A stretch of 64,000 nt of DNA from Candidatus Spongiihabitans sp. (GCF_965237845.1 NZ_OZ250154.1:259121-323120); one strand, 5' to 3'; counted from the first letter of the stretch, positions 7,770 to 24,747 are shown. Program-made: numbers and translations. The notes: generated by a model from the sequence alone, not told the origin.

Positions 7770-8549
7770 ATGATCACGGATTCCGAAAAAAAACCAATTG
7801 AAAATGGGGTTAAACGCCGGATTATTAAACCCGGGATTATTAAACATGCCGTCATGGTTGTCTATCTATTGGGGTTGTCGTTATTGCTGGGATTAGGCGG
7901 TTGGCAGATCGGCAGGGGCCTGGAAAAAAACCAGGTTGAGAAAGCCATTTCTGAACGGCAAAATCAGCCCATAGTCATAAAAAAACAGCCTGAAAGCTGG
8001 GGCGACATAAAGTACAAAATGGTGCAACTGGATGGAAATTGGTTGGCGGGAAAAACATTTTTGCTGGACAATCGCGTCTATCAGGGGAAAACAGGTTATG
8101 AATTGTTGAATCCCATTCAGCTGAGTGGCGATGGCAGTGCAGTGCTTGTCAATCTCGGCTGGGTTGAAAAGCAACGGGTTAAGGAGGTCATGTCAATCAA
8201 TGCCAGGTTAATCAGCAATGACTCGGTTGAGTCAGAAAAAGTGACCGGCCAACTGTATTTGCCGGACAAAGGGTTTACCCTGGGAGCGGCCTATACAAAT
8301 GAAACTTCATGGCCAAAAATAATCCAGTATTTCGATCAGGCGGCGTTGTCAAAAGCACTGGGGGTTGATCTAGGTCCGGCAGTCGTTGTTTTGGACTCAA
8401 GCCCAAGTCGAGGCTTAATAAAAATCTGGTCGCCCTATGTGGTCAACGCATCTCGCCATTTCGGATATGCTTTTCAATGGTGGGGATTAGCGTTGACATT
8501 GATAATTTTCGGTATTATATGGCGGCGCAACAGTAATAGCCAATTTTGA
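7770..8549 (+). CDS. SURF1-family cytochrome oxidase biogenesis protein
   Basis: 259 aa with TM helices at both ends flanking a periplasmic domain. The C-terminal RHFGYAFQWWGLAL is typical of SURF1/Shy1. Confidence 0.8.
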   Translation: MITDSEKKPIENGVKRRIIKPGIIKHAVMVVYLLGLSLLLGLGGWQIGRGLEKNQVEKAISERQNQPIVIKKQPESWGDIKYKMVQLDGNWLAGKTFLLDNRVYQGKTGYELLNPIQLSGDGSAVLVNLGWVEKQRVKEVMSINARLISNDSVESEKVTGQLYLPDKGFTLGAAYTNETSWPKIIQYFDQAALSKALGVDLGPAVVVLDSSPSRGLIKIWSPYVVNASRHFGYAFQWWGLALTLIIFGIIWRRNSNSQF

Positions 8550-8563
8550 TATGATGGCTTGAT

Positions 8564-9214
8564 ATGACAGACAAAAACAAAAACGCTGGAGGCGCTGATT
8601 TTGGAAACACGGATTTGTGGCGTTCAAGGTTAAAACTAATTTTCATTTTTTTCCTGTTTCTTGGGCCGCTGTTGGTTGCATTCTTTTGGTACTACGGCTT
8701 AGGCGCCATATTGTTGCCGAAAGGGAAATCCAATCATGCTCCGCTGGTCAATCCGGTGGTCACTTTAACCCCATTCGAAAATAGTCTGTTCAACCACGGG
8801 CGCATTTCATCAGGAAGAATTTCACTTGAGTCGTTAAAACATAAATGGACCATCGTGCACTTGCTCAATTCCAACTGTGAGGCACAATGCCAAAAGTCCC
8901 TCTATAACACACGCCAAACGCGTATCGCCCTGGGCAAAGGCGCCGTGCGCGTGCAGCGCTATGTGGTTATCAATGACTCTGTATTGGCCGATGAAATTCA
9001 GCAACGCCACGCAGATGTTGTGCTGGTGAATCAATCCGGGGAAGGGCTGCAAAAACAATTGCAGCGGATTATTGAGCAACATAATATTGGCAGTGATGAT
9101 GCGCTATTAATTGACCCGGTGGGAAACGTAATGATGGTGATTCCCGTGGATCTGGATCCAAGGCTGTTGCTCAAAGACCTGAAGAAACTGCTTAAAGTGT
9201 CACGGATAGGTTGA
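8564..9214 (+). CDS. Membrane-anchored hypothetical protein, possibly SCO/thioredoxin-like
   Basis: 216 aa with an N-terminal TM helix and a CxxxC motif (NSNCEAQCQ) reminiscent of SCO/SenC copper chaperones. It ends the cox cluster. The assignment is tentative. Confidence 0.4.
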
Positions 9215-9272
9215 TAGAATAGACCTGTGCAAGCCCACAGCAATTTTATTTGGTGAAAAATCGCGCAATAAT

Positions 9273-10673
9273 ATGAATCAAAAAAAACCATGGGGAGGGC
9301 GCTTTTTAAGCGCCACCAATCGCCTGATGGAACAATTTTCCGCATCAGTTGGTTTCGACTGCCGATTATATCGACACGACATTGCTGGATCAATTGCCCA
9401 TGCGCGTATGCTCAGCCGCCAAGGTATTATTACTCAAATGGACTTTGATTCCATTGCAAAAGGATTGTTGGAAATCCAAGCTGAAATAGAAAACAACACC
9501 TTTGAATGGCGCGAAGGGCTTGAAGATGTTCACATGAATATTGAAGCGGCATTAACCTCAAGAATTGGCGAGGCCGGTAAAAAACTGCATACCGGGCGCT
9601 CGCGCAACGATCAGGTTGCCACCGACATGCGTTTATTTCTGAGGCAAGCGCTGGATGGGATATGCTTGCAATTGACCGAATTGCAACATGCGTTAATCAG
9701 ATTGGCCGAGCATGAGGCGGAAACTATCCTGCCCGGTTATACGCATATGCAGGCCGCTCAGCCGGTGATTTTGGGGCATCATATTCTGGCCTGGAACGAA
9801 ATGCTGCAACGTGATTTCGAACGGTTTCAGCAATGCAGGCAAAGGATAAATATTTGTCCGCTGGGCAGTGCGGCGCTGGCTGGCACCAGTTACCCCATAG
9901 ATCGGGAAATGACCGCCCAGGAACTCGGTTTCGAGGGTGTTAGTTTGAATTCGCTGGATGCGGTATCGGATCGTGATTTCATTATTGAATTTACCGCCCA
10001 TGCCGCACTGGCCATGATTCACTTATCGCGGGTCTCGGAAGAGTTGGTGCTGTGGTCATCCGATGCCTTTGGATTCGTAGATTTGGGCGACCAGTTTTGC
10101 ACCGGTTCGAGCATCATGCCACAGAAAAAAAATCCCGACGTTGCCGAGCTGACCCGAGGAAAAAGCGGGCGAGTTTGCGGTGATTTGATGTCGCTGTTAA
10201 TGTTAATGAAAGGGCAACCCCTAGCCTATAACCGAGATAATCAGGAAGATAAAGAGCCCCTGTTTGATACCGTCGATACGCTGCAACTCTGTTTGGGTGT
10301 TTTTTCGGCGATGTTTCCTGGGGTGAAATTTAACCGCGATAGAATGAATGCGGTGGCTGAAAAAGGATATTCCACGGCAACGGATTTGGCGGATTATCTG
10401 GCAAGGAAAAACATTCCGTTTCGGGATGCCCATGAAGTTGTTGGTAAGGTTGTCGGTTATGCCGTTGAACAAAGTGTGGCCTTGCCAGATATAGCGTTAA
10501 GTCAATTGCAAAAGTATTGCGCGGTGATTGAGCAAGATGTTTATGCTGTGTTGGACTTGCAGGGCTCGGTCAATGCGCGCGATCATATGGGCGGAACAGC
10601 GCCAAAACGGGTTAGGCAGGCGGCCGCGGCCGCACGAAAATTACTCGATGCAAGAAAGTCCAATTCAGGATAA
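9273..10673 (+). CDS. argH: Argininosuccinate lyase
   Basis: 466 aa with the fumarate-lyase signature [15 protein letters not shown] and N-terminal WGGRF. Confidence 0.95.
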
Positions 10674-10701
10674 AATCACAGGCGGATTCATCTCGGCCCA
10701 A

Positions 10702-10731
10702 GATATAAGCAATGACGATATAAGCAATGAC
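10702..10731 (+). repeat. Perfect 15-nt tandem duplication (gatataagcaatgac x2) in the argH-lptM spacer
   Basis: Read directly: 10702-10716 is identical to 10717-10731. Confidence 0.9.
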
Positions 10732-10778
10732 CAACCAAATATCCGCATCCCTAAGAATGTGATCCCCAAAAGGTATCA

Positions 10779-10943
10779 ATGAGAAGCGCCCTAATCTTGG
10801 TGATGGCGAGTTTTATGTTGTTGTCTGCTTGCGGGCAGAAAGGCCCGTTGTATTTGACCGAAGACCAAATTAGTGCAGAGCAGACTGAGCAAAAACAACA
10901 ACAAAAACAACAGAAACAACAAGGAGAAAAGACGACGGATTAG
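10779..10943 (+). CDS. lptM: Small lipoprotein LptM/YifL-like
   Basis: This 54-codon ORF is absent from the track. It has the lipobox LLSAC followed by GQKGPLYL, the signature of the small lipoprotein usually found just upstream of lysA/dapF. The Gln/Lys-rich tail is encoded by low-complexity caa/aaa sequence. Confidence 0.6.
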   Translation: MRSALILVMASFMLLSACGQKGPLYLTEDQISAEQTEQKQQQKQQKQQGEKTTD

Positions 10944-11040
10944 ATTATCGTTTTTAAGCATTAGATTCATTTTTCGGACGGCTGCGTAACCTCGCCACCT
11001 CAGTTTTCTAACCCAGTTTTCTAAACCATTCCAACCTCAA

Positions 11041-12294
11041 ATGGATTATTTCGAGTATAAAAACAGGCGGTTATTTGCCGAGCAAGTCGCCCTTGGCGAT
11101 ATTGCAGAACAAGTCGGCACGCCTTGTTTCGTATACTCCCGCGCAACCCTGGAAAGACATTGGAATGCATTCAACAATGCATTCGGCGACTATCCCCATC
11201 AAATTTGTTATGCGGTAAAAGCAAACGGCAATCTTGCTATCCTGAACTTACTCGCCAGATTAGGCTCTGGTTTTGATATTGTCTCTGCGGGGGAACTTAT
11301 GCGTGTTATGGAATCTGGCGGGGATCCAGCGAAGACAATTTTTTCTGGTGTGTGTAAACAGAGTTGGGAGATTCGCAATGCGCTGGAAGCAGGGATTCAT
11401 TGTTTTAACATCGAATCCGAAGGCGAGTTGCAACGCATCAGTGCGATTGCCGGGGAATCAGGCGTGCAGCCGCGGATATCGATACGGATAAATCCGGACG
11501 TGGATGCAAAAACCCACCCGTATATATCCACCGGTCTGCGGGAAAACAAATTCGGCTTGTCTCCCGCCCAAGCGCTGGAAATCTATACACAAGCATCTAA
11601 AGACAAAAATATTCAAATCCACGGCGTTGCCTGCCACATTGGCTCTCAGTTGACGGATTTATCGCCTTTCAAAGCCGCGTTGAACCGCACCTTGTATTTT
11701 GTTGGCCAACTTGAGCGCATTGGGATTGCAATCAGCCATCTTGATTTCGGTGGTGGATTGGGGGTGAGATACCGTGATGAACAGCCTCCCAGCCCCGATG
11801 AATACGGGCAAATGCTGCTTGACCAACTTAAACCCCGAGCCCGGCAAATTCCGGTTGTCATCGAACCCGGGCGGGCGATTATCGCCAATGCAGGAATTTT
11901 GCTAACCAGGGTGCATTATATCAAGAAAAGCGATGCCTCAAATTTTTGTATCGTTGACGCAGGAATGAACGATTTAATTCGGCCCGCGTTATATCAGGCG
12001 TATCAGGAAATAGTTGAAGTGGATAAAACCGGCAAAGTCGATCCCGATGTCTATGATGTCGTCGGGCCAGTTTGCGAAAGCAGCGATTTTCTGGGCACGC
12101 AACGACGATTAAGTGTTGCTGAGGACGATTTACTTGCGGTCAGAACCACGGGTGCTTATGCTGCGGTGATGAGTTCAAATTACAATGCCCGTCCGCGACC
12201 CGCTGAAGTCATGGTTGATGGCGATAAATTTCATGTTATTAAACCACGCGAAACTGTGGAATCACTCTATCAGGGAGAACAAATTCTGCCTTAG
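11041..12294 (+). CDS. lysA: Diaminopimelate decarboxylase
   Basis: 417 aa with the PLP lysine motif YAVKAN, plus EPGRAI and CESSD motifs. Confidence 0.95.
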   Translation: MDYFEYKNRRLFAEQVALGDIAEQVGTPCFVYSRATLERHWNAFNNAFGDYPHQICYAVKANGNLAILNLLARLGSGFDIVSAGELMRVMESGGDPAKTIFSGVCKQSWEIRNALEAGIHCFNIESEGELQRISAIAGESGVQPRISIRINPDVDAKTHPYISTGLRENKFGLSPAQALEIYTQASKDKNIQIHGVACHIGSQLTDLSPFKAALNRTLYFVGQLERIGIAISHLDFGGGLGVRYRDEQPPSPDEYGQMLLDQLKPRARQIPVVIEPGRAIIANAGILLTRVHYIKKSDASNFCIVDAGMNDLIRPALYQAYQEIVEVDKTGKVDPDVYDVVGPVCESSDFLGTQRRLSVAEDDLLAVRTTGAYAAVMSSNYNARPRPAEVMVDGDKFHVIKPRETVESLYQGEQILP

Positions 12295-14863: not shown

Positions 14864-15811
14864 CTATAGACATCGGGCAGGTAAATTAAAAGGGCATGCA
14901 AAAGCCGGCAGCACAAAGAGAGCGCTGGGCCGACAAGCGGAGCGCCTGATGATCGTTGAAAACAATAGTGATAAGTCATCGGGCCGATAACCACTCCAAC
15001 GGGCCACCAATCTCTGCCTGAAATAACAGATCATTCTGCCATCGGCGCCGCTGGTTGCCGATTTACCCCATGATTTACCCCAAGGCGCAACACCGTGCAT
15101 AGCTAAACGGTGGACAACAAACGCTTGGCCGGGTTTTACCGCGATCTCCACTCGTTTACAGGTGGCGAATACATTTTTACGGGTGCGTTGATAAATCTCG
15201 GTAACATCTTCGTCGCCCCACTTGTCCGGCGCCAGGCCCTTAAAGCGTGTGCCGAATGCCGTGCGGACAATTTCATGAGATTTCTCCCAGACAACAAACG
15301 GCGAAGCATCCGCGCTGAAATCAACCAGCGGAATGCCCAGAATAAAACCATGATGCTCGCGCAGATGGCGGCGCCGAGCGGTGCCTTCAGCGCGCAAGCC
15401 ATCGACATGGGCGGCATCGCAGTCACGGCGATACCGAAAGGCGGCGCTGGATTCCGATTCCATCGGCTGAGGATAACCCGGGTAGCATACCGAGATCTGC
15501 CCGCGGTCCAGATCGAAATTTGACAGCCCCAGGCAATGTCGAATAAATTCCACCGCAGCGCCTTGCAGTGGTGCGCAGTCGCCTAGCGCGCCAGAAGCCG
15601 AGTTTGGCAGTACGTTCACGCCAGCGAACCAGGTACCGCCACAACGCAACCATTGTGCGTTTTCCTGTTTGCTAACCGCTTCACGCGCTTCAGGCAACGC
15701 GCATTTAACCCATTCGGCGAGCGCGCCGTCGTATTTGAATTTGCGCCAGCCTTGTTTAAAAAATGATTCAGCGTTCATAACGACAACCCCGCGCAAACCC
15801 TGGACGGTCAT
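14864..15811 (-). CDS. Hypothetical protein, possible 2-His-1-carboxylate (cupin/2OG-oxygenase-like) enzyme
   Basis: AAHVDG and a later HRLAMHG could form an HxD...H triad. The likely real start is ATG 15775 (MNAESFF). The last ~50 residues look like low-quality read-through. Confidence 0.4.
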   Translation of the reverse strand: MTVQGLRGVVVMNAESFFKQGWRKFKYDGALAEWVKCALPEAREAVSKQENAQWLRCGGTWFAGVNVLPNSASGALGDCAPLQGAAVEFIRHCLGLSNFDLDRGQISVCYPGYPQPMESESSAAFRYRRDCDAAHVDGLRAEGTARRRHLREHHGFILGIPLVDFSADASPFVVWEKSHEIVRTAFGTRFKGLAPDKWGDEDVTEIYQRTRKNVFATCKRVEIAVKPGQAFVVHRLAMHGVAPWGKSWGKSATSGADGRMICYFRQRLVARWSGYRPDDLSLLFSTIIRRSACRPSALFVLPAFACPFNLPARCL

Positions 15812-15856
15812 TTCAACTGAGTGGATTGAGAGTTGATAATGGGGTCTGTTGAAAAT

Positions 15857-18814
15857 CTATGCGACGCGGAAAATATCTCCAGGTTGTTCGGTCCAATAGC
15901 GACGGTATTGCCCGGAAGCTTTTTGGGGGTCGTTGAACATGAAAAGCTTCACCTGGACCCCAGCCTTGCCGTGGCGGAAAAAACGGGGTTTTTCATCCTC
16001 TTCAAACAGCTCTTTGTAACCGTCTATTCTGCGCTCGGCGGCAGTGTATTCGGTTCCCTTCGGATCCACAAACACGATACGGTATTCATTTCCCTTACAC
16101 ATCCAGAAAACAAAATCAGGCAGAAAACGGCGGTAATCGTTGTTACCTCTATCATAGTAAGGAATGTGAACATCGTCCAAGGACTCGTCTATTTTGCTGA
16201 ACATCCAAGCATCCCACGGTACCTTGTTTCTCTCCACCCATTTTTCCAGTGCATTAAGAAAACTGACCTCGCTATTGACTTTGATTATATGCTGTATGTA
16301 ATCGGTTGTCTCGTTCCCCAGAAGCACGGGAAAGTAATAGTGTTGAGCAACCCTTTTGATCGTCAGCTCCCTGAAAGTCTCTTCATTTTTTCCTGAAGAC
16401 TTCTTAGTAAACTCTTCCCGCGTTATCTCACCCAGTCCAAGTTGCTGACCTAATTTGCTTATCTCTCCATCGGACACCTCACCTTGCCTGACCCGGTTAA
16501 GTCTTTCTTTAAGATCGTTGACGTATTCAGAATGGACACGAATATGACGGAAGTGAACAATATCTTTTTTGCCAAGCGCCCGAACGCCATCAGACACCTT
16601 TGCCGTTTTAGAAAGGTGGGATATAAGACGGTGTTGCAAAAAAGGAATCATCGCATAGTTCTTTTCCGGGGTGAGTTGTATTTTCTCCGTATTTTTTACC
16701 ATGCTGCGCAATGCAGCAATCTGGGATGTTTTAAGCCCATCTCGAACTGCAAACACTGCATCGGATGTTGTTTCCATATAACTTTTGAGTCTGTTCAGGG
16801 TTTTCTCGCTCATGGCGAATTTTCCTTGTGCGGCTGCGCCATCTTTCGCTTCTTTGTATTCGGGAACCAGCAACGGCATATTTTTATTGCCGATTTTCGG
16901 TATTGGCGCCCTTTCAAAACCTTCCAGGATTTCAAAGTCTCCACTTTCTCCATATTCCGCCGCCAACCCTTCCAGCACCGCCTTGACGGCACTTCGGTTG
17001 GTCGCAAAAAGAAACAAGGTTTCCAGCGGCTGTACCTGGTCGTGATAAGGCTGAATGGCCTTTTTCTCATTACTCTCAGGCAAACGGGCAAACCGGCGGC
17101 GTTGATTGGGCAACGGCTCTATCCGTACGCCTCGCCCGACCGACTGCACCACAAACTTCTTGGCGTCTTTCCCGCCGATGTTGATGAAGTTGATCACGTT
17201 GGGGCGGTTGGAATCCCAACTTTCAAAGAATGATCGCGAGCCCATCAGGATGGTTATTCGGCTTTTCTCCAAGCCCTCAAAAAACGATTTCCCTTGCAAT
17301 GCGGTTGTTTCTTCAAATCCATCGAGCAATATATTGCGCCATTTGGATGTATCGCCGATGCGTATCAAGGCAAAAGGCGAGTCGGCGTTTTTTAATTGAA
17401 ACGCCAGTTCCTTGTTATCTTCGCTGCGGATGAATTGCAATGCTCCCTTTGCGCGGCTCAGAAAAACCGCTTCGCGCAAATCGGTTATTTTCATTTTGCC
17501 GATGACATCTTCATCGGTTCCAATAATTCCAGCGCCATTCCCGCCGAAAAGAAGCCTTGCGTTTCTCCAATTATCCATCAATTCGGTTTTCGCCTCTTTG
17601 AAAAGCGATTGGTCAATCTCTCCAGTGGCAATTTCGCGCAAGGTTTGAAAAAACGCCCACAAATCATTCTGGTCGTTTTCAATGTCGGTATTGACGGAAT
17701 TAACCAAGGTCAGCATCAGCGGCAGATGGTAAAGGTTTTCCAACCCCGTGCCGATGCGAAGCGCCTTGACCCGCATAGATACATAAGCCAGCGTGATAAG
17801 CGACTTCAGGACAATTTTTCGTCTTTCCGCGTGGCTGATTTCCTCTTTCCTGTTTTTGAATGCGTTGTACTCGGTTTCATTCAAGTAAATGTTTTTGCCA
17901 TGTCCGTTTTTTACAAACTCTTCCAAATTGTATTTTTTAACGGTCGTTATGATGTCCTCTTTATCGGTAAAAGTTGCGGAGAAGTTAAACAGAAAACCCT
18001 CGCGCGCCATAATCGCGTAATACGCCTGCCGTTTGGAATCCTCCTTGCTGCCCTTGTGTGCCTCATCCAGCAGGATGAACCATTTGCCTCCGTTTTCATA
18101 TGTGCGATAATCAATCAACGCCTCTTTCTGAACATCGGAAATGTTGTCGCTGCGGTGGTAATAAACCACTATCGAATCGCCGACCCTGTGCTGATACGAC
18201 CCCCTGCCCGCTTGACGCAAAGGAACCAAATCTATTTGCAATCCGCTACTTCGGTTGAATTCGTCAATGGTGCGGCGTATCTGCCCAATCAAGCCACCGC
18301 TGCTCGGAGCGAGGATAAGAATGTTATGCGGTGGAATTTCGCCATGTTGCTGCAAATGACGCAAGTATTCAATCAATTTAACCATCACCAACGTCTTGCC
18401 GCTTCCGGTGGCCATCCAAAAGCACATTCGGTTTATCAGGTTGGCATATGGGATTAAATCGCCCAATGGGCGCATGAACTCCGACAATAGGCGAAATACT
18501 TGGCTTTCCCTCTTGTTCTTTTCATCGGCACGGGTTTCGTATTTTTTAAGATACGCAGACAAGCTGGAATCTCTGTATAAATCCATGAAAAACCTTTTGC
18601 GTTCATTGCTTGTCTCCTGGGTTTCACCGGAAAACCAATCATGATCTTTCCCATAATAAAGATAAAACGCGCGCGCGGCTTTTTCCAAAGCGTCTGTTTG
18701 GTAGCCGTATAGGGTTTTTTCGGAAGAAAACCGGTGAATATCAGGCACGCGCCAAGTTTCGGGGAGGTCTCCGTAGTTCAGGGATTCGCTGATAAGTTCA
18801 AGATGTGTTTGCAT
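15857..18814 (-). CDS. res: Type III restriction enzyme Res-like subunit (SF2 DEAH helicase with C-terminal PD-DxK nuclease)
   Basis: 985 aa. Helicase motifs: I ATGSGKT, Ia ILILAPS, II LLDEAHKG, III NFSAT, VI QSVGRGVR. The C-terminal nuclease motif is LPDFVFW...IVFVDPKG. It is the last gene of the mod operon and its start overlaps the previous ORF by 17 nt. Confidence 0.8.
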   Translation of the reverse strand: MQTHLELISESLNYGDLPETWRVPDIHRFSSEKTLYGYQTDALEKAARAFYLYYGKDHDWFSGETQETSNERKRFFMDLYRDSSLSAYLKKYETRADEKNKRESQVFRLLSEFMRPLGDLIPYANLINRMCFWMATGSGKTLVMVKLIEYLRHLQQHGEIPPHNILILAPSSGGLIGQIRRTIDEFNRSSGLQIDLVPLRQAGRGSYQHRVGDSIVVYYHRSDNISDVQKEALIDYRTYENGGKWFILLDEAHKGSKEDSKRQAYYAIMAREGFLFNFSATFTDKEDIITTVKKYNLEEFVKNGHGKNIYLNETEYNAFKNRKEEISHAERRKIVLKSLITLAYVSMRVKALRIGTGLENLYHLPLMLTLVNSVNTDIENDQNDLWAFFQTLREIATGEIDQSLFKEAKTELMDNWRNARLLFGGNGAGIIGTDEDVIGKMKITDLREAVFLSRAKGALQFIRSEDNKELAFQLKNADSPFALIRIGDTSKWRNILLDGFEETTALQGKSFFEGLEKSRITILMGSRSFFESWDSNRPNVINFINIGGKDAKKFVVQSVGRGVRIEPLPNQRRRFARLPESNEKKAIQPYHDQVQPLETLFLFATNRSAVKAVLEGLAAEYGESGDFEILEGFERAPIPKIGNKNMPLLVPEYKEAKDGAAAQGKFAMSEKTLNRLKSYMETTSDAVFAVRDGLKTSQIAALRSMVKNTEKIQLTPEKNYAMIPFLQHRLISHLSKTAKVSDGVRALGKKDIVHFRHIRVHSEYVNDLKERLNRVRQGEVSDGEISKLGQQLGLGEITREEFTKKSSGKNEETFRELTIKRVAQHYYFPVLLGNETTDYIQHIIKVNSEVSFLNALEKWVERNKVPWDAWMFSKIDESLDDVHIPYYDRGNNDYRRFLPDFVFWMCKGNEYRIVFVDPKGTEYTAAERRIDGYKELFEEDEKPRFFRHGKAGVQVKLFMFNDPQKASGQYRRYWTEQPGDIFRVA

Positions 18815-19361
18815 TTGCTGACAGTTTTTTAGCCAAAATCTCGGATGGTATTATTTCAACATCGCCTACCACTTTCTTTGTTAATACTCCGCGCAAATCA
18901 TCAAGCAGGTAGCTAGCCAAATATTCAACAACCCCTCTTGTTTCCTCTGCGTCTACACCATCTATAACAAGCCAAAAATCATGCTTTTTATCTTTCATGC
19001 GTTTTGCAGCATCCTTGCATTTTGCAGCTAAACGACACAGAACAAGCAAACTTCCATATACTTTCACGTAATTTTCTTGTCTAACATTTTTAACAACACA
19101 ATCCTTCTTGTCATCATCATTAAGATATGAATATTGTTCTTCAATGGCTTTAATAGTATCCGCCAAACGAGTTTCTTCGACAACAAAAATTTTGTTATCA
19201 TTAATAAAAAAATAATCGCAACAGTTGCAGCTTCCCAAACCCACATCTGCCCTCATATCGGGCATCTCTACCGATTTTGTTGTGTTATCCATACGAAAAA
19301 CATCAACTTCTTTCCCGTTCGAGTCTGGTCTTACTTCCCGAAATTGACCAAGAAATGTCAT
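18798..19361 (-). CDS. 187-aa orphan protein, unknown family (possible degenerate PD-(D/E)xK fold)
   Basis: AAGGGG lies 5 nt upstream of its ATG, which has an ATGA overlap with the ATPase stop. The ORF is very AT-rich. The only motif-like feature is CDYFFINDNKIFVVEETR (D...ExR). It has no HNH or Toprim signatures. Confidence 0.6.
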   Translation of the reverse strand: MTFLGQFREVRPDSNGKEVDVFRMDNTTKSVEMPDMRADVGLGSCNCCDYFFINDNKIFVVEETRLADTIKAIEEQYSYLNDDDKKDCVVKNVRQENYVKVYGSLLVLCRLAAKCKDAAKRMKDKKHDFWLVIDGVDAEETRGVVEYLASYLLDDLRGVLTKKVVGDVEIIPSEILAKKLSANANTS

Positions 19362-20746
19362 AAAAGCCCCTTGATATACAAATCAGAAAACGGTTTTGTC
19401 AGTTCCTGCTTTATCCTTGCCAATTTAATGTCAAAATCGCTCTCACCATCTATAACTCCTTGATGTGAAAAATGATTTAATGCCACCAATTCCTCATATT
19501 CTGGATTTTTCTTTACTGCCACTTCAAGGAATTTAAGAATATCGGCACTGTGGGTGGCGATGACAACGTTAACGCCGCCTTTCGCCAATTCAAACAGGGT
19601 TTCAGCCATAACGACCTGCCACCCCGGGTGCAGATGCGCTTCCGGTTCGTCAATGAAAATAAAGGAATCCTCGTCCAGCACCTTGCGCTCAATCAACAGC
19701 GCCAAAACACCGAGGTTGGCAACTCCCATGGCGGTTACGGGCAAAGAGAAACTACGGCCATTTTCCTGGAATGATAAATCGCCGCTTTCGGAAAGTGCGA
19801 TTTTTCCGCCGAGAATATTCTCGCCAGTCAATTTTTCATATACATCCGGGAAAGCCATATCACCGGTGTATTGATACTTGAGCGCGCTTGCCAGATCATA
19901 AAAATATCCCGGAATCCCACTGATTCGTTCTCTGCTGCTATGCAGGTGCCTCGGAGATAGGCGAATGTCCTCCAAAGCGTTTTTTAATTTCCAGTAAACA
20001 GGGGATTCCAGATAAATCACTTTGGAATATTGTTGTAATTCCTGCAATCCAAACCGAGGTATGCTGAACTCAATTTCTCCATTTGAGAATTCAAATTTTC
20101 CAAGATAATCACTCACAACTTCCGATGACCGGTCTTCTTTGCCTCTCAGATCGGAAAGCTTTGGCACTTGAAAATTTTGAATCAGATTCTCTTTAATTTT
20201 ATATGCTATCCCGGAAACAATAAATTCTTTCGCATTTTTGTCGCTGAGTTCTTCTTGCAACTTGGTCAAAGATTGTTCCTCACCCTTCAAAGTATCTTTC
20301 ATTAAGGAACGGGAACCGTCCAGATCCGGCGATGCCATAGATTCCAGTTCTAAAATCAGTTTAGAGAGAGTTGCCTGTATCTCTTTCGCCTTGTTAGCAA
20401 GATCAGGCATGATTTTGTCCAACTGTTTAAAGTCTCCGATTGGGGAATCTATGATCATATCTTGCAACACTCTAATTCTCTCGTATAGCGGAAATAGCGA
20501 CACTCTTTCCCCCTCTGAATCCTCCAAATCTTTTAGATTACCAATACTATGTAAAAGATGTGCGGTGAGATTATTTATATGCTCCTTAGCATGATTCGCA
20601 TTCATCGAGTTAAAAAGCGAATACAAAACCTTAGAAACAAAACTTTTGCCGGTGTTATTCGGTCCGGCGAACACAGTGAATTGCCCGATGCGAATTTTCG
20701 CATCGGCAAGTTTGCCGATATTCTTGATTTTCAGTTCAAAAGCCAT
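19358..20746 (-). CDS. ABC/SMC-like AAA15/AAA21-family ATPase
   Basis: 462 aa. Motifs: Walker A GPNNTGKS, Walker B/D-loop FIFIDEPEAHLHP, H-loop IATHS. A coiled-coil-like insertion rich in E/K/L lies between the two halves. An AGGGGA SD lies 6 nt upstream of the ATG. Confidence 0.8.
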   Translation of the reverse strand: MAFELKIKNIGKLADAKIRIGQFTVFAGPNNTGKSFVSKVLYSLFNSMNANHAKEHINNLTAHLLHSIGNLKDLEDSEGERVSLFPLYERIRVLQDMIIDSPIGDFKQLDKIMPDLANKAKEIQATLSKLILELESMASPDLDGSRSLMKDTLKGEEQSLTKLQEELSDKNAKEFIVSGIAYKIKENLIQNFQVPKLSDLRGKEDRSSEVVSDYLGKFEFSNGEIEFSIPRFGLQELQQYSKVIYLESPVYWKLKNALEDIRLSPRHLHSSRERISGIPGYFYDLASALKYQYTGDMAFPDVYEKLTGENILGGKIALSESGDLSFQENGRSFSLPVTAMGVANLGVLALLIERKVLDEDSFIFIDEPEAHLHPGWQVVMAETLFELAKGGVNVVIATHSADILKFLEVAVKKNPEYEELVALNHFSHQGVIDGESDFDIKLARIKQELTKPFSDLYIKGLL

Positions 20747-20782
20747 GATGCATCCCCTAAGTGCAAAAGCATTGTTATTCTA

Positions 20783-23401
20783 TCACTCCCCCCACCACAA
20801 GTAGGGCTTGATTAGGGATATGAAATGCCGCTTTTCCTGCTCCGTCATTTTTGTCGTATCTATTTTTTCAATGCTCCCGTCCTCAAAGGTTACCGTGTCC
20901 GCGGTGCGATGGCGGATTTGTTTGCCGAGGATGTTGGAGAGTGATTCGGCGATGTCTATGTCGGGGTAGAGGTTGTGCAGGTTGATTTTTAGTTTGCCGT
21001 TTTTCAGGGGTTTGACGGCGTGGGCGAGTTTGTCATCGCCGAAGAAGACATATTGTTCAAACGGCGATTTCGCGCTGTCCAGTTCCAACTGTTCGCCGTC
21101 CTCGTAGCGGGCGTTTTTCAGGGATTCTTCGTATTGTTCCAGCGTGTAGTATTTGAGGCAGTGGCTGCTGCCCTCGCGGGAAACGGGCTTGCCGTCTTTC
21201 CAGTCTTTGGAATAGACAACTTTTTTTATCCGTGGAAGCAGAACCGTATGGAAGTACTCTCCCATTTCAATAAGCAGATATTTTCGCTCTCCGCCATCTT
21301 CACGGTTTAGATTTATTACTGCATGAGCAGTGGTACCGGAGCCGGCGAAGTAGTCGAGAATATTCCCCGAACCAGACTCCGCCCCAGAGCCTATCAGTCC
21401 GGTATAGAAAAAAACCGAGTGGCAGTACGGGAAATTCTTCAGTCCCAATTTATCAAGGTCTGACTTGCCTCGTCTAGCATCTGGCATAACAGAACTTATC
21501 TGATACTTTGAACCATCCTCTAAAATCCGCTTTTGCCTTGGTTGAGTGGTTTCATCTGAGCCGAAAAGAATCTCTCCTTTATCAATCATTTTTTGAAGGG
21601 TTTCAGGGGTGCGAGAAAAACCATTTGGCGGAACAGCGCATGGTTTGCCAGTAACAGGATGTATCAGCGGGATAAAGAATTTTTTGTCTGTTCGTGGTTC
21701 TGGCGCCCTGAGACTAACGTCACGATAAACTAATCCCTCGTCATCTAAGAAACGGCAAGCTTGCTCACCCCCACTTAATTTGGAATTTCTAGAAACCCAT
21801 TCGGCATATTGTTTTTTTGCTGTGTCAGTAACGCCATCGTTTCGCTTAATAATTGCTTCTGCTTTTGCCAGCATGATTTTGATATTTTTACTTTGAGCAT
21901 TGAAGGTTTGATCTGTCTTCATTCTGAAGATTACATACTCGTGTTGCTTTGCTATACCGCTGCCTCCAGTCATAGGATTCCTCTTATCCCAAATCACAGT
22001 CCCGGCATTCAGCAAGCCGCTATTATCCATAAGCAAATGCAGTCTCTCGTATTCATTTTCATCAATATGGCACAAAAATGATCCGTCATCCGAGAGCCAC
22101 CCCAAAGAACAGTGAACACGATTGTCCATCATCGTCAGCCAACTGGAATGTTTGTAATCATTACGATAAAGAAAGCCGCTGGTTTTCGTATTGTATGGTG
22201 GGTCAATGTGAATACACTTCACCTTCTCCCTATAACGCTTTTGCAAACTATTCAACGCCTGCCAATTCTCGCTATGCACCAACTCCCCGTCCAGCACTTC
22301 ATCCAAGTTACCCAAGCAACCAAGAATATCCAATTCCAAATCCTTGAAATGCGCGGTATCAAGCGGCAGAAATTGACACTCGCCGCTTGCGCCGTTTTTG
22401 TCGGCCAGACTTTTCTGTCCGTTGAAAATCGCGGTCATTGAAAACTGATTATCCACCATCCCCAACTCGCGCCATTCTTTTATCTGCGCTTTTGCCCCTT
22501 GATGTTTTATTATCTTGTTCAGAACCCCGTCCGCCAGTTTGTCCAACGTGACGACATAATTGACATTACGCACAAACTTCGGCTTCTCCCATACCCGACA
22601 AAGTTCATCTTCAAACTGCGCGATGAAGTCAATGATGTTATAGGCGGTGTCCTTGATCGCCTGAATCTGCCGAATTCTTTTTTCCTCGAAGACGGTTTCT
22701 TCCTGAAAAATGTATTGATACACCCACAAGTCAAACTGCTCGTGCAAAAAGCCTCTTGCGTCTTTGTTGATGAAAAAGTTGGCTTCGGTCTGCCGCTGGA
22801 ATACACCGATGGCTTTTTGCAATTCATCCTTGGACAGCGGGATTCTTTCTTTTCGGCATTGTTTGAGAATTTCATCGGCCCTGGTTTTAGCGCCGTTTTT
22901 GGAATACGAAACCTTGAAGTGAATAACCCATCCTTTCGGCGATCTTTTCACTTCGTCAAAGGCAAAAACGAATTCTTTCCGCTCGTTATTTTTCTTGTGC
23001 TCAACCTCGGAAGCGTCAAAATACAAAAGCCGAGTGTTTTGCGGCATTCCCTCTTCGTTCAACTCAACCGGCATGGAGCGCACCAGCACGTCGGATTTAA
23101 CGTAGTAAAGCATCTGCGTTTTCCACGACAGGGCGACATCCTGCCCATCGGCATACACGCGCTCGTAGGTTTTTGAGAAAGCTGGCAGGTGGCGGAAGTA
23201 GATCGAGCCGCTTTCGCAGAAGTAGCGGTTGAAGAAGGTATAGAGTTTGTCGAAAAGTTCTTCGCGGAATGAAGTCTGCCGTTCGGCGCGACGATCAATC
23301 TCCGCCATCAGTTGCGGGCGGATGGAACGAAAATAGGCGCGCTTCATCCGCATCAAATTAACAAAGCCGGAGTCGCCGTCCACTTCGGCGCCGGTGAACA
23401 T
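20783..23401 (-). CDS. mod: Type III-like Mod DNA methyltransferase (beta-class N6-adenine/N4-cytosine)
   Basis: 872 aa. Motif [11 protein letters not shown] lies ~290 residues upstream of motif [15 protein letters not shown], which is the beta-class order. The N-terminal extension is ~390 aa. There is no SD before ATG 23401, and the frame stays open 33 codons further upstream (stop at 23501-23503), so the start is uncertain. Confidence 0.8.
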
Positions 23402-23619
23402 GGATTCGAGCGCGTCCAGGAAGCGTTTTTCTTTGGTGTTGATATTCCGTCCTCGTATTGTTTGATTACGTCGATTGAGCGTGTCTGTTATCGAAAAAAT
23501 TCAGGGATATTGTACCTTGCATTCAACTTTGAAGCGCAACTCATCCACAAGGTCGGGCAGGCAAAGCAAGGGCAGAAGTCAATTTAAGGTTGCGGCATAA
23601 GCCACGGGTGTCTCACTGG

Positions 23620-23642
23620 ATTATCGGGTTGAGCCCGATAAT
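23620..23642. other. Perfect 9-bp inverted repeat (attatcggg / cccgataat) with a 5-nt loop
   Basis: Read directly in the 416-nt non-coding stretch at the right edge of island 1. Function unknown. Confidence 0.6.
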
Positions 23643-23859
23643 GATGGGCGCAGAGCGGAGCCGAGTCAATGCGCATTTTTGTTCAATAGCCGGCATGCGG
23701 TTTTGGCAATACGCTTTGATTACGATTTCCAAACAGGATAAACTGCAACCCAGCCTTATTTACCTGCATAAAATTAACGATTGAAATGAGTAGTTCGATT
23801 TACAAAATCAGTTCGTCTTGGTGCCATTTCCGAGTTGGCTTTTCGGGAAATTCGTGTTA

Positions 23860-24747
23860 ATGAATATCGGTTTTATTGGCCTTGGTGTGATGGGCAATCC
23901 TATAGGGTCAAATTTGGTGCGGGATGGCGGTTATAACGTGTCCGTGTTTGATATACATACAGAGCGCGCGGATAACTTGGTTGAAATGGGTGCGCTGCGC
24001 GCCAAATCTGTTGCACAGGCAGTTGAGGGTGCGAATGTCATTATGACGTCATTGCCCGGCCCTGATCAGATCGAGGCCGTGGCATTCGATGACGATGGAT
24101 TGTTCGCCAATATCCAGGCCGGGGCGGTGTGGATCGATTTAAGCACCAGCAATCTTGAATTGTGCAAGCGTATCGCGGCCTGCGCCACCGAACAAAAAGT
24201 GGACTATCTGGATGCGCCGGTCTCAGGCGGCGATGAGGGCGCGCGGGCAGGCAATTTGACCATTCTGGTTGGCGGTGAAAAAGCGGTGTTTGAACGCTAC
24301 TTGCCAGTGCTGCAAGTAATCGGAGAGAGGATTACTTATTTGGGCCCATCGGCAGCCGGGTGTTGTGCAAAAATTGCTCAGGTAGTGCTGTGTTATTTGC
24401 ATTCTCTGGCGCTGTCCGAAGCATTGATGCTGGGAATAAAGGGCGGTGTCGAAGCGTCAGAAATGTTATCGATCATTCAAAATAGCACGGGCCGAAGTTA
24501 TGTTGCGCAGCGCTATGGCCCACCGATTCTGCGCGGCGACTATGACCCCTCATTTACCCTCGGTTTGGCGCACAAAGATATGAAACTGGCTCAGGCAATG
24601 GCCGATGACCTCGGTCTCAGGTTGCCGATGTGCGATTTAACCACCGAGATCTACGCTCGCGCCCTTGAACAATATGGATTTGATGCCAATCATCTAAAAG
24701 CGGTGCGTTTACTTGAAAATGACAACAAAACGTTTCTACGGGAATAG
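23860..24747 (+). CDS. NAD(P)-dependent 3-hydroxyisobutyrate/6-phosphogluconate dehydrogenase-family oxidoreductase
   Basis: It starts at MNIGFIGLGVMGNPIG (Rossmann GxGxxG). The ORF-track start at 23818 adds 14 unlikely residues. Confidence 0.8.
   Translation: MNIGFIGLGVMGNPIGSNLVRDGGYNVSVFDIHTERADNLVEMGALRAKSVAQAVEGANVIMTSLPGPDQIEAVAFDDDGLFANIQAGAVWIDLSTSNLELCKRIAACATEQKVDYLDAPVSGGDEGARAGNLTILVGGEKAVFERYLPVLQVIGERITYLGPSAAGCCAKIAQVVLCYLHSLALSEALMLGIKGGVEASEMLSIIQNSTGRSYVAQRYGPPILRGDYDPSFTLGLAHKDMKLAQAMADDLGLRLPMCDLTTEIYARALEQYGFDANHLKAVRLLENDNKTFLRE

Follow-up and report, generated by a model that had tools for sequence, protein, structure and literature searches.

Pairs of an ATP-binding cassette (ABC) ATPase and an effector, such as Septu, PARIS, Gabija, Lamassu and HEC-01 to HEC-04, form a major branch of bacterial immunity and, to our knowledge, every new effector of such pairs has up to now brought to light another way of killing or another logic of activation. 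PARIS, which frequently lies within restriction-modification (R-M) loci, has anti-restriction proteins such as Ocr as its triggers, and PrrC guards its R-M system against the anti-restriction peptide Stp. Payne et al. found new defence systems by their embedding in Hma, BREX, DISARM and Type I R-M loci (bioRxiv 10.1101/2024.01.29.577857). HEC-02 (Hma-embedded candidate 02), described in the same study, consists of an ABC ATPase and a PD-(D/E)xK (NERD) nuclease, protects against phages and requires both genes (bioRxiv 10.1101/2024.01.29.577857). Here, a gene pair of similar architecture is described, which lies in a stretch of 64,000 nucleotides from Candidatus Spongiihabitans sp. (GCF_965237845.1, NZ_OZ250154.1:259121-323120; the whole of this stretch is called the window) and codes for an ABC-type ATPase of 462 amino acids and a partner protein of 187 amino acids, ORF187. 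In the reading preferred here, to which a probability of roughly 0.55 is given, the two genes form an autonomous anti-phage cassette of the ABC-ATPase-plus-effector class, which in this genome lies inside a Type III R-M operon and whose small partner is nuclease-like. The architecture and the class of the ATPase are already known; the family of the partner is unassigned, and embedding in a Type III operon is little documented.

The gene for the ATPase (19358..20746, minus strand), the proposed sensor or regulator half, directly precedes that for ORF187 (18798..19361, minus strand), the proposed effector, which belongs to an unnamed family. Both are located between the gene for a Type III Mod DNA methyltransferase (872 amino acids; 20783..23401, minus strand), the first gene of the predicted operon and the upstream frame of the cassette, and the gene for a Type III Res-like subunit (985 amino acids; 15857..18814, minus strand), which is the last. 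This order of Mod, ATPase, ORF187 and Res is compact: 36 nt separate mod from the ATPase gene, the latter overlaps ORF187 by 4 nt in an ATGA stop/start motif (19358..19361, minus strand; read from the sequence), and the start of res overlaps the ORF187 stop by 17 nt. The ATGA overlap is a predicted translational coupling of the ATPase and ORF187. Re-reading of the sequence placed the two open reading frames (ORFs) on the minus strand and returned the coordinates and sizes given in a preliminary description of this DNA, in which their position inside a Type III R-M operon was absent. We infer a defence function of the pair from its context, and this reading is strengthened by the embedding between mod and res.

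The pair is conserved as such in other genomes, to an extent well beyond chance. A pattern-plus-tblastn scan of species-representative genomes yielded 53 loci, in 49 of which the ATPase lies directly upstream of ORF187 on the same strand, as determined by tblastn and by independent ORF clustering; in the other four, the copies are truncated or have become pseudogenes. No further gene family recurs systematically beside the pair in these loci. Two very divergent ORF187 relatives retrieved by profile search, P0182 and P0214, also directly follow an AAA_15/AAA_21 ATPase, and the conservation as a pair extends across phyla. A 4-nt (A/G)TGA overlap is present in 38 of 47 loci if the first in-frame start is taken, and in 30 of 47 if the start nearest to the stop is used. 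The pairwise distances of the ATPase and ORF187 are correlated with r = 0.69, a value reached by 0 of 2000 permutations in a Mantel test, although such a correlation may reflect mere co-inheritance and does not by itself prove a physical interaction. By sequence comparison, the ATPase and ORF187 are inherited and diverge as a unit. Around three quarters of the loci are devoid of any trace of the Mod/Res frame, and in L027, L029, L041 and L042 only stubs of Mod or Res surround an intact pair, the remnant in L027 being the last 42 amino acids of Mod and the first 111 amino acids of Res. At P0011 and P0044, the pair is found among arginine-biosynthesis or other metabolic genes, and L066 adjoins Type II and Type IIG R-M genes. 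Since most loci lack the frame and decayed frames enclose intact pairs, the pair is regarded as an autonomous cassette, which is maintained independently of the R-M system.

A number of loci deviate from the simple two-gene arrangement. Two tandem full-length copies of the ATPase precede a single ORF187 in L033 (7070-9935), and a second, truncated ORF187-like ORF of 120 amino acids follows directly after the intact copy in L015 (10554-10916). In the database protein P0098 (445 amino acids), the N-terminal ~250 residues of the ATPase, which contain the Walker A half and lack Walker B, are fused in frame to a complete ORF187 domain; this fusion probably stems from a deletion or from an error of assembly. 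In L054, L057 and L058 (~8480-10004), strain variants of one population, a split or frameshift divides the ATPase into two ORFs while ORF187 is intact and identical, and this may reflect ongoing inactivation or indel errors of long reads. In the loci L054 to L060, at ~10585-12075, a gene for an AAA_14/DUF4143 ATPase of ~385-390 amino acids is located directly 3' of the pair. It occurs in two otherwise unrelated contexts, in one of them on the strand of the pair and in the other on the opposite strand, and may be a coincidental neighbour or a loosely associated third gene.

The ATPase matches the Pfam families AAA_15 (3e-19) and AAA_21 (3e-13). Its best match among the PADLOC models is HEC-02A (7e-32, 109 bits), the best stretch of which covers only residues 184-421 and hence mainly the C-terminal half, followed by NsnB of Menshen (7e-27), PD-T4-4_A (6e-25) and AriA (1e-21). 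The models for PtuA score far lower (6e-13 in PADLOC; 27 bits against a cut-off of 500 for NCBIfam PtuA). The full-length match in PHROGs is phrog_14430 (7e-77), whose function is not annotated, and the sole sequence match in the PDB is AriA (E-value 3e-4), limited to residues 336-417 around Walker B. All elements expected of an ABC ATPase of the defence class are present, namely Walker A, a signature-like helix, Walker B with the D-loop, an H-loop and a head that is split by an insert. The Walker A motif or P-loop FAGPNNTGKS (residues 26-35; 20642..20671, minus strand) is invariant or nearly so in alignments of 47 and 52 sequences. The region from Walker B and the D-loop, FIFIDEPEAHLHP (residues 362-374), through the H-loop ATHS (residues 397-400) corresponds to 19547..19663 on the minus strand and is conserved in the family alignment, in which D366, E367, P368, E369, H373 and H399 are invariant.

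In the AlphaFold2 (AF2) model of the ATPase (pLDDT of 82 in the predicted local distance difference test; predicted template modelling score, pTM, 0.84), the ABC head is broken by five long helices between residues 52 and 191 (52-78, 85-99, 106-136, 140-169 and 172-191), which bears out the split of the ABC motifs around a coiled-coil-like insert described previously. The best Foldseek matches of this model in the PDB are PtuA chains from Septu and from the retrons Ec78, Ec83 and Eco7 (E-values of 2e-6 to 1e-4, probability 1.0), with template modelling (TM) scores of 0.35-0.40 and 10-13% sequence identity; AriA and the heads of SMC and Rad50 follow in the list. Residues 56-175 (20222..20581, minus strand) form a hypervariable part of the helical insert, as seen from the model and from identity comparisons. 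Compared with the relatives from Ca. Spongiihabitans, the ATPase is 85% identical in residues 1-55, 79% in residues 176-300 and 89% in residues 301-462, whereas the insert reaches 28%. ORF187 is 88-93% identical in the same comparison. Across the family, the mean pairwise identity of the insert is 0.20 versus 0.46-0.67 for the other regions of the ATPase; the best 120 ATPase homologues listed are all at least 54% identical. Because the effector and the ATPase engine stay constant while the insert is swapped or evolves fast, we propose that the insert is a sensor surface for the recognition of a trigger; it could also serve as an oligomerisation arm.

ORF187 has homologues in 95 clusters according to a word-indexed search, and an exhaustive profile search retrieved 262 representatives at 50% identity with E-values of at most 1e-3, 209 of which have E-values of at most 1e-10. 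Nearly all of them are stand-alone proteins of ~190 amino acids, and the few members named by NCBI are called "hypothetical protein". ORF187 has no match in Pfam, PADLOC and NCBIfam at E-values up to 1, nor in PHROGs. A match of 13 members to zf-C2H2_ZFHX3 (best E-value 0.5) arises from the cysteine cluster and was rejected, as was the basic leucine zipper of MafB, the sole match of a PDB profile search (E-value 0.013), which is coiled-coil or compositional noise. The AF2 model, built on a 47-sequence alignment, has a pLDDT of 86.8 and a pTM of 0.83 and consists of strands at residues 8-12, 18-23, 50-54 and 57-64 and helices at 66-76 and 82-114, followed in the C-terminal part by helix 116-122, strand 126-133, helix 139-160, strand 165-172 and helix 173-183. 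Judged by its homologues and this model, ORF187 is a real, conserved and well-folded protein of an unnamed family. Fold matches to the Rag GTPase roadblock, USP and esterases have TM scores below 0.4 and were dismissed, and Toprim, HNH and deaminase readings were rejected in view of the order of the motifs and the predicted topology.

The preliminary description had noted neither Toprim nor HNH in this protein, and this agrees with the empty searches of Pfam, PADLOC, NCBIfam and PHROGs. It had also counted few potential metal ligands: the single histidine and the six cysteines (C45, C47, C48, C88, C109 and C115) are correct, but the conservation of the cysteines was under-rated, as C48 is present in 97% of the family. 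The remote homology search that it had proposed gave no confident assignment to a known effector family, and its view of an uncharacterised variant of the ATPase-plus-effector theme holds, with the partner being unassigned both by hidden Markov models (HMMs; Pfam, NCBIfam, PADLOC, PHROGs) and by fold (PDB, BFVD). The proposed effector is indeed non-canonical in that it matches no known family; its chemistry, however, is probably not exotic, as a constellation of D, E and K residues fits a very divergent nuclease of the PD-(D/E)xK type.

This constellation emerges from an alignment of 202 ORF187 sequences, in which D25 (97%), C48 (97%), D49 (99%), E62 (99-100%), K100 (99-100%), Y102 (96%) and G103 (94%) are conserved, followed by C47 and C109 (both ~87%), E96 (86%) and C45 (76%). 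The core block, proposed as a PD-(D/E)xK-like metal site, comprises C45-N-C-C-D49-Y50, a beta-hairpin and E62-E63-T64 (19170..19229, minus strand), and a second conserved motif, E96-N-x-L-K100-V-Y102 (19056..19076, minus strand), lies on a helix. In the AF2 model, D49 opens the strand 50-54, which forms a hairpin with strand 57-64, where E62 lies; the register of this hairpin would place D49 opposite E62. The sequential order resembles that of PD-(D/E)xK enzymes, with D25 at a strand end, [C/G]-D-[Y/F] at the hairpin strand (D49), h-h-E-x-(K/T) (E62-64) and a helix. It differs from them in that the invariant lysine, K100, is located on the next helix and that a cysteine cluster is not known from those families. 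The order of strand, hairpin, helix and strand in the model is compatible with a restriction-endonuclease core. A strict four-cysteine metal or iron-sulfur site would involve C45 (76%), C47 (87%) and C109 (86%), which are not universally kept.

Position 64 is T in 85%, K in 6-7% and S in 5% of the sequences, and members with K64 read D...E-[E/D]-K, which is the canonical PD-(D/E)xK signature. E96 is lost in 13 of the 14 K64 members and kept in 173 of the 188 others (Fisher 5e-12, not corrected for phylogeny); the K64 set is only 33% identical on average. Owing to this coupling, positions 64 and 96 are suggested to share one site with the invariant K100, which is located on the same helix as E96. 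Among the top entries of the Foldseek list, which is low-scoring, are the ERCC4-type nuclease-fold domains of Zip2-Spo16, Mus81-Eme1 and XPF, whose E-values of 0.26-1.5 and TM scores of at most 0.38 are non-significant. The motif GD[YF]...ERK of the ERCC4-type family resembles CDY...EE(T/K) of ORF187; this is a lead only. That ORF187 is a divergent PD-(D/E)xK-type nuclease is a plausible assignment, which we place slightly below even odds.

The frame around the pair has the hallmarks of a Type III system. Mod matches PADLOC MTase_III (1e-192) and Pfam N6_N4_Mtase (3e-25), and its translation contains DPPY and FxGxG motifs; it is a beta-class N6/N4 DNA methyltransferase with an internal target-recognition domain, as expected of a Type III Mod. 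Res matches Pfam ResIII (2e-13) and PADLOC REase_III (3e-19) and combines GSGKT and a DEAH box of a superfamily 2 helicase with a C-terminal LPDF...VDPKG, a PD...DxK nuclease motif that was spotted by eye, and thus shows the helicase-nuclease composition of a Type III Res. Type III systems have adjacent mod and res genes, whereas here the two-gene cassette lies between them and in relatives variable cargo is found. In a comparison with Ca. Spongiihabitans, the target-recognition region of Mod (around residues 401-680) is 18-35% identical as opposed to 77-88% for its flanks, which suggests that the specificity domain has been swapped between close relatives. The DNA similarity to Ca. Spongiihabitans drops out precisely at this domain (window 21362-22183). 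No Hma model occurs among all 4 PADLOC matches of Res, the best 25 of 30 of Mod and the best 25 of 134 of the ATPase, and membership of the operon in Hma was rejected on this basis.

Homologues of Mod and Res flank the pair in around nine loci and additionally in the JGI loci L061-L064; the arrangement of mod, pair and res recurs in L003, L024, L028, L061 and L063. The gap between mod and res accommodates other cargo in relatives, including an AlbA_2/HATPase_c_4 protein, a ParA-like AAA_31 ATPase, further AAA_15/21 ATPases, an HTH-M78 peptidase together with DUF4411, a DUF4145 protein, an extra methyltransferase and a MORC-like HATPase_c_3 protein (L006 6625-12825; L019 7878-15129; L026 10494-16206; L036 4123-14314; L038 6320-8600). 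In these Type III operons, the mod-res gap has the look of a hotspot at which defence genes are inserted.

The source genomes of the pair belong to at least seven phyla and include Gammaproteobacteria (Arenicellales, Pseudomonadales and others), Nitrospirota, Latescibacterota, Acidobacteriota (Terriglobia), Chloroflexota (Dehalococcoidia), Verrucomicrobiota (Limisphaerales) and Thermodesulfobacteriota. Mod is 71-77% identical between the gammaproteobacterium of the window and metagenome-assembled genomes (MAGs) of Arenicellales or Dehalococcoidia, and such identity across distant MAGs indicates horizontal transfer. ORF187 had no tblastn match in phage and plasmid collections and the ATPase gave one weak partial match among 50,697 phage records; there is thus no sign of a pair carried by phages or plasmids in these collections. 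Among the source MAGs are several with names of sponge symbionts (Spongiihabitans, Poriferihabitaceae, Porifericomitaceae, Porisulfidus). An enrichment of the pair in sponge microbiomes is only a suggestion, based on taxon names from a scan that favours close relatives.

In the window, the GC content of the four-gene block is 0.42-0.47 compared with a mean of ~0.50, housekeeping genes are located on both sides, and the locus and its flanks show synteny to contigs of Candidatus Spongiihabitans thiooxidans. A scan of 15000-24500 for promoters and terminators gave counts at the level of shuffled sequence and no internal signal above chance, and for this reason the four genes are treated as a single operon without claimed signals. 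Scans of the window for tRNAs and Rfam families returned nothing. Directly 3' of res lies an ORF of 315 amino acids (14864-15811, minus strand), which has no Pfam match and is 90% identical to the syntenic ORF of Ca. Spongiihabitans; by sequence it is a conserved gene at the border of the island with no assigned family. The local GC content peaks at 0.61 in the segment 42001-43000 of the window, compared with ~0.50 for the window as a whole.

The defence reading is supported by the kinship of the ATPase to HEC-02A, NsnB, PD-T4-4_A and AriA, the embedding in an R-M operon, the other defence-type cargo found there and the lower GC content. Several results weigh against the reading of the pair as an anti-phage cassette with a nuclease-like partner. 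Searches of 47 aligned ORF187 members against Pfam at E-values up to 10 found nothing consistent and no PD-(D/E)xK, NERD or ERCC4 model. Foldseek returned no PDB or BFVD match of the ORF187 model with an E-value of 0.001 or lower, the best being an E-value of 0.08 with TM scores of at most 0.38 in the PDB and an E-value of 0.046 with a TM score of 0.42 in BFVD. An hhalign comparison with the C-terminal nuclease domain of Res gave a probability of 0.2%, and a relationship was rejected, and the canonical lysine of ExK is replaced by threonine in 85% of the members. Furthermore, most standalone loci lie outside obvious defence islands, the pattern-based locus scan is biased to close relatives, and the co-divergence described above may stem from co-inheritance. 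Some of these points would also fit a protein that acts as an adaptor, a sensor or an antitoxin-like regulator, with the ATPase or a host factor doing the damage and the cysteine cluster binding a metal for structure or redox sensing: homology of ORF187 to nucleases is not detectable, most members lack the ExK lysine, and C48 (97%) together with C45, C47 and C109 (76-87%) could form a metal site. However, three acidic residues and one lysine are near-invariant among members that are ~30% identical, a pattern typical of catalytic sites, the covariation in the ExK sub-clade hints at a rearranged active site, and the small partner is a nuclease in every characterised relative (Septu, PARIS and HEC-02). 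A purely regulatory ORF187 is considered unlikely.

The tight layout with its 36-nt gap, 4-nt overlap and 17-nt overlap with res, the recurrence of the same layout in several phyla (the five mod-pair-res loci named above) and the lack of internal promoter or terminator signals above chance could also indicate that the pair belongs, as an integral accessory, to a Type III-like R-M machine of four components and would regulate loading, translocation or cleavage by Res or control restriction alleviation. This is hard to reconcile with the roughly three quarters of loci that have neither Mod nor Res, with decayed frames around intact pairs and with the unrelated cargo between the pair and res in L019, L026 and L036; moreover, Mod and Res each possess complete catalytic motifs, and an accessory role is judged quite improbable. 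A role outside of defence, either in DNA repair or recombination, as for SbcCD- or RecN-like ABC ATPases with a nuclease, or as a selfish addiction module that spreads horizontally, would be in keeping with the occurrence of ABC/SMC-like ATPases and nucleases in repair, with Rad50 and SMC heads among the Foldseek matches and with the many standalone loci among housekeeping genes. The patchy distribution across phyla, the GC content below that of the surroundings, the location in R-M operons beside other defence cargo and the nearest HMMs, which are all defence ATPases, speak against it, as do the hypervariable insert and the pseudogenisation of some copies, which are traits of defence or mobile genes and not of core repair; we regard such a role as very improbable.

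If the pair is an anti-phage cassette, the ATPase would oligomerise via its ABC heads and hold ORF187 inactive until the hypervariable insert senses a trigger of phage origin. This trigger may be an anti-restriction protein directed against the R-M system around the pair, by analogy with Ocr for PARIS and Stp for PrrC. Binding or hydrolysis of ATP would then free or activate ORF187, which could act as a metal-dependent PD-(D/E)xK-like nuclease, cut DNA or RNA using D25, D49, E62 and K100 and thereby stop the infection. In a more far-reaching and tentative version, which we think is rather less likely to be right than wrong, ORF187 is the founder of a new family of effectors, and its fold is either new or an extreme branch of the restriction-endonuclease fold in which the catalytic lysine has moved and a cysteine cluster is present. 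Together with the ATPase, it would make up an anti-phage system that is new and passes from phylum to phylum, apparently for the most part in sponge microbiomes. Inside a Type III R-M operon, this system would be a guard that fires once phage anti-restriction factors disable the R-M system, and the first such guard for Type III.

The partner family is new in any case: none of its ~260 diverged members is covered by Pfam, NCBIfam, PADLOC or PHROGs, and no structural relative of them has been solved; even if the pair were inert, a conserved family of this kind would be worth naming. Its two states, T64 with E96 and K64 without E96, amount to a natural active-site experiment and provide ready-made predictions for mutants. 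"Guilt by embedding", which has so far been described chiefly for Hma, BREX, DISARM and Type I R-M, may extend to Type III operons, and the apparent sharing across phyla among MAGs named after sponge symbionts bears on the exchange of immunity genes in dense host-associated communities.

Compared with the known systems, the pair shares features with several of them. PARIS likewise combines an ABC ATPase with an effector, and AriA is the only PDB sequence match; however, the DUF4435/Toprim domain of AriB is absent from ORF187, the similarity to AriA is limited to the Walker B region, and AriA ranks below HEC-02A, NsnB and PD-T4-4_A among the PADLOC matches of the ATPase. PrrC, RloC and AbiL (Rlo genes) resemble the present locus in that defence genes with ABC-type ATPase modules are nested between R-M subunit genes. 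Their frame, however, is Type I and not Type III (mod/res), and the effector here is a separate small protein without an anticodon-nuclease or RloB (Toprim-like) signature. In the case of AbiL/RloAB, there is no match to RloB (PF13707), and the ORF187 model starts with antiparallel hairpins rather than with a Rossmann-like Toprim. For PD-T4-4 and Menshen (NsnABC), the ATPase matches PD-T4-4_A and NsnB, whereas ORF187 matches none of the PADLOC partners (PD-T4-4_B, NsnA/NsnC). Septu and the retron-associated PtuAB provide the best structural match, PtuA, and share with the pair an ABC head that carries a helical insert and a small partner encoded immediately downstream. They differ in that PtuB is an HNH protein, while ORF187 has a single non-conserved histidine and neither an HNH motif nor an HMM match, and the TM scores of 0.35-0.40, the 10-13% identity and the weak PADLOC PtuA match (~1e-13) are low. 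The preliminary description compared the pair with PARIS, Septu and AbiL. PtuA and AriA are the nearest solved relatives of the ATPase, but among validated systems HEC-02, rather than PARIS, Septu or AbiL, is the closest analogue according to the HMMs of the ATPase. ORF187 matches neither the partner model of HEC-02 nor Pfam NERD, and the host frame is Type III R-M here and Hma in HEC-02. Both are, however, two-gene systems of an ABC ATPase and a small partner, which occur embedded in a helicase/methylase defence operon and also standalone, HEC-02A is the best PADLOC model of the ATPase, and the effector class would be shared as well if ORF187 is PD-(D/E)xK-like.

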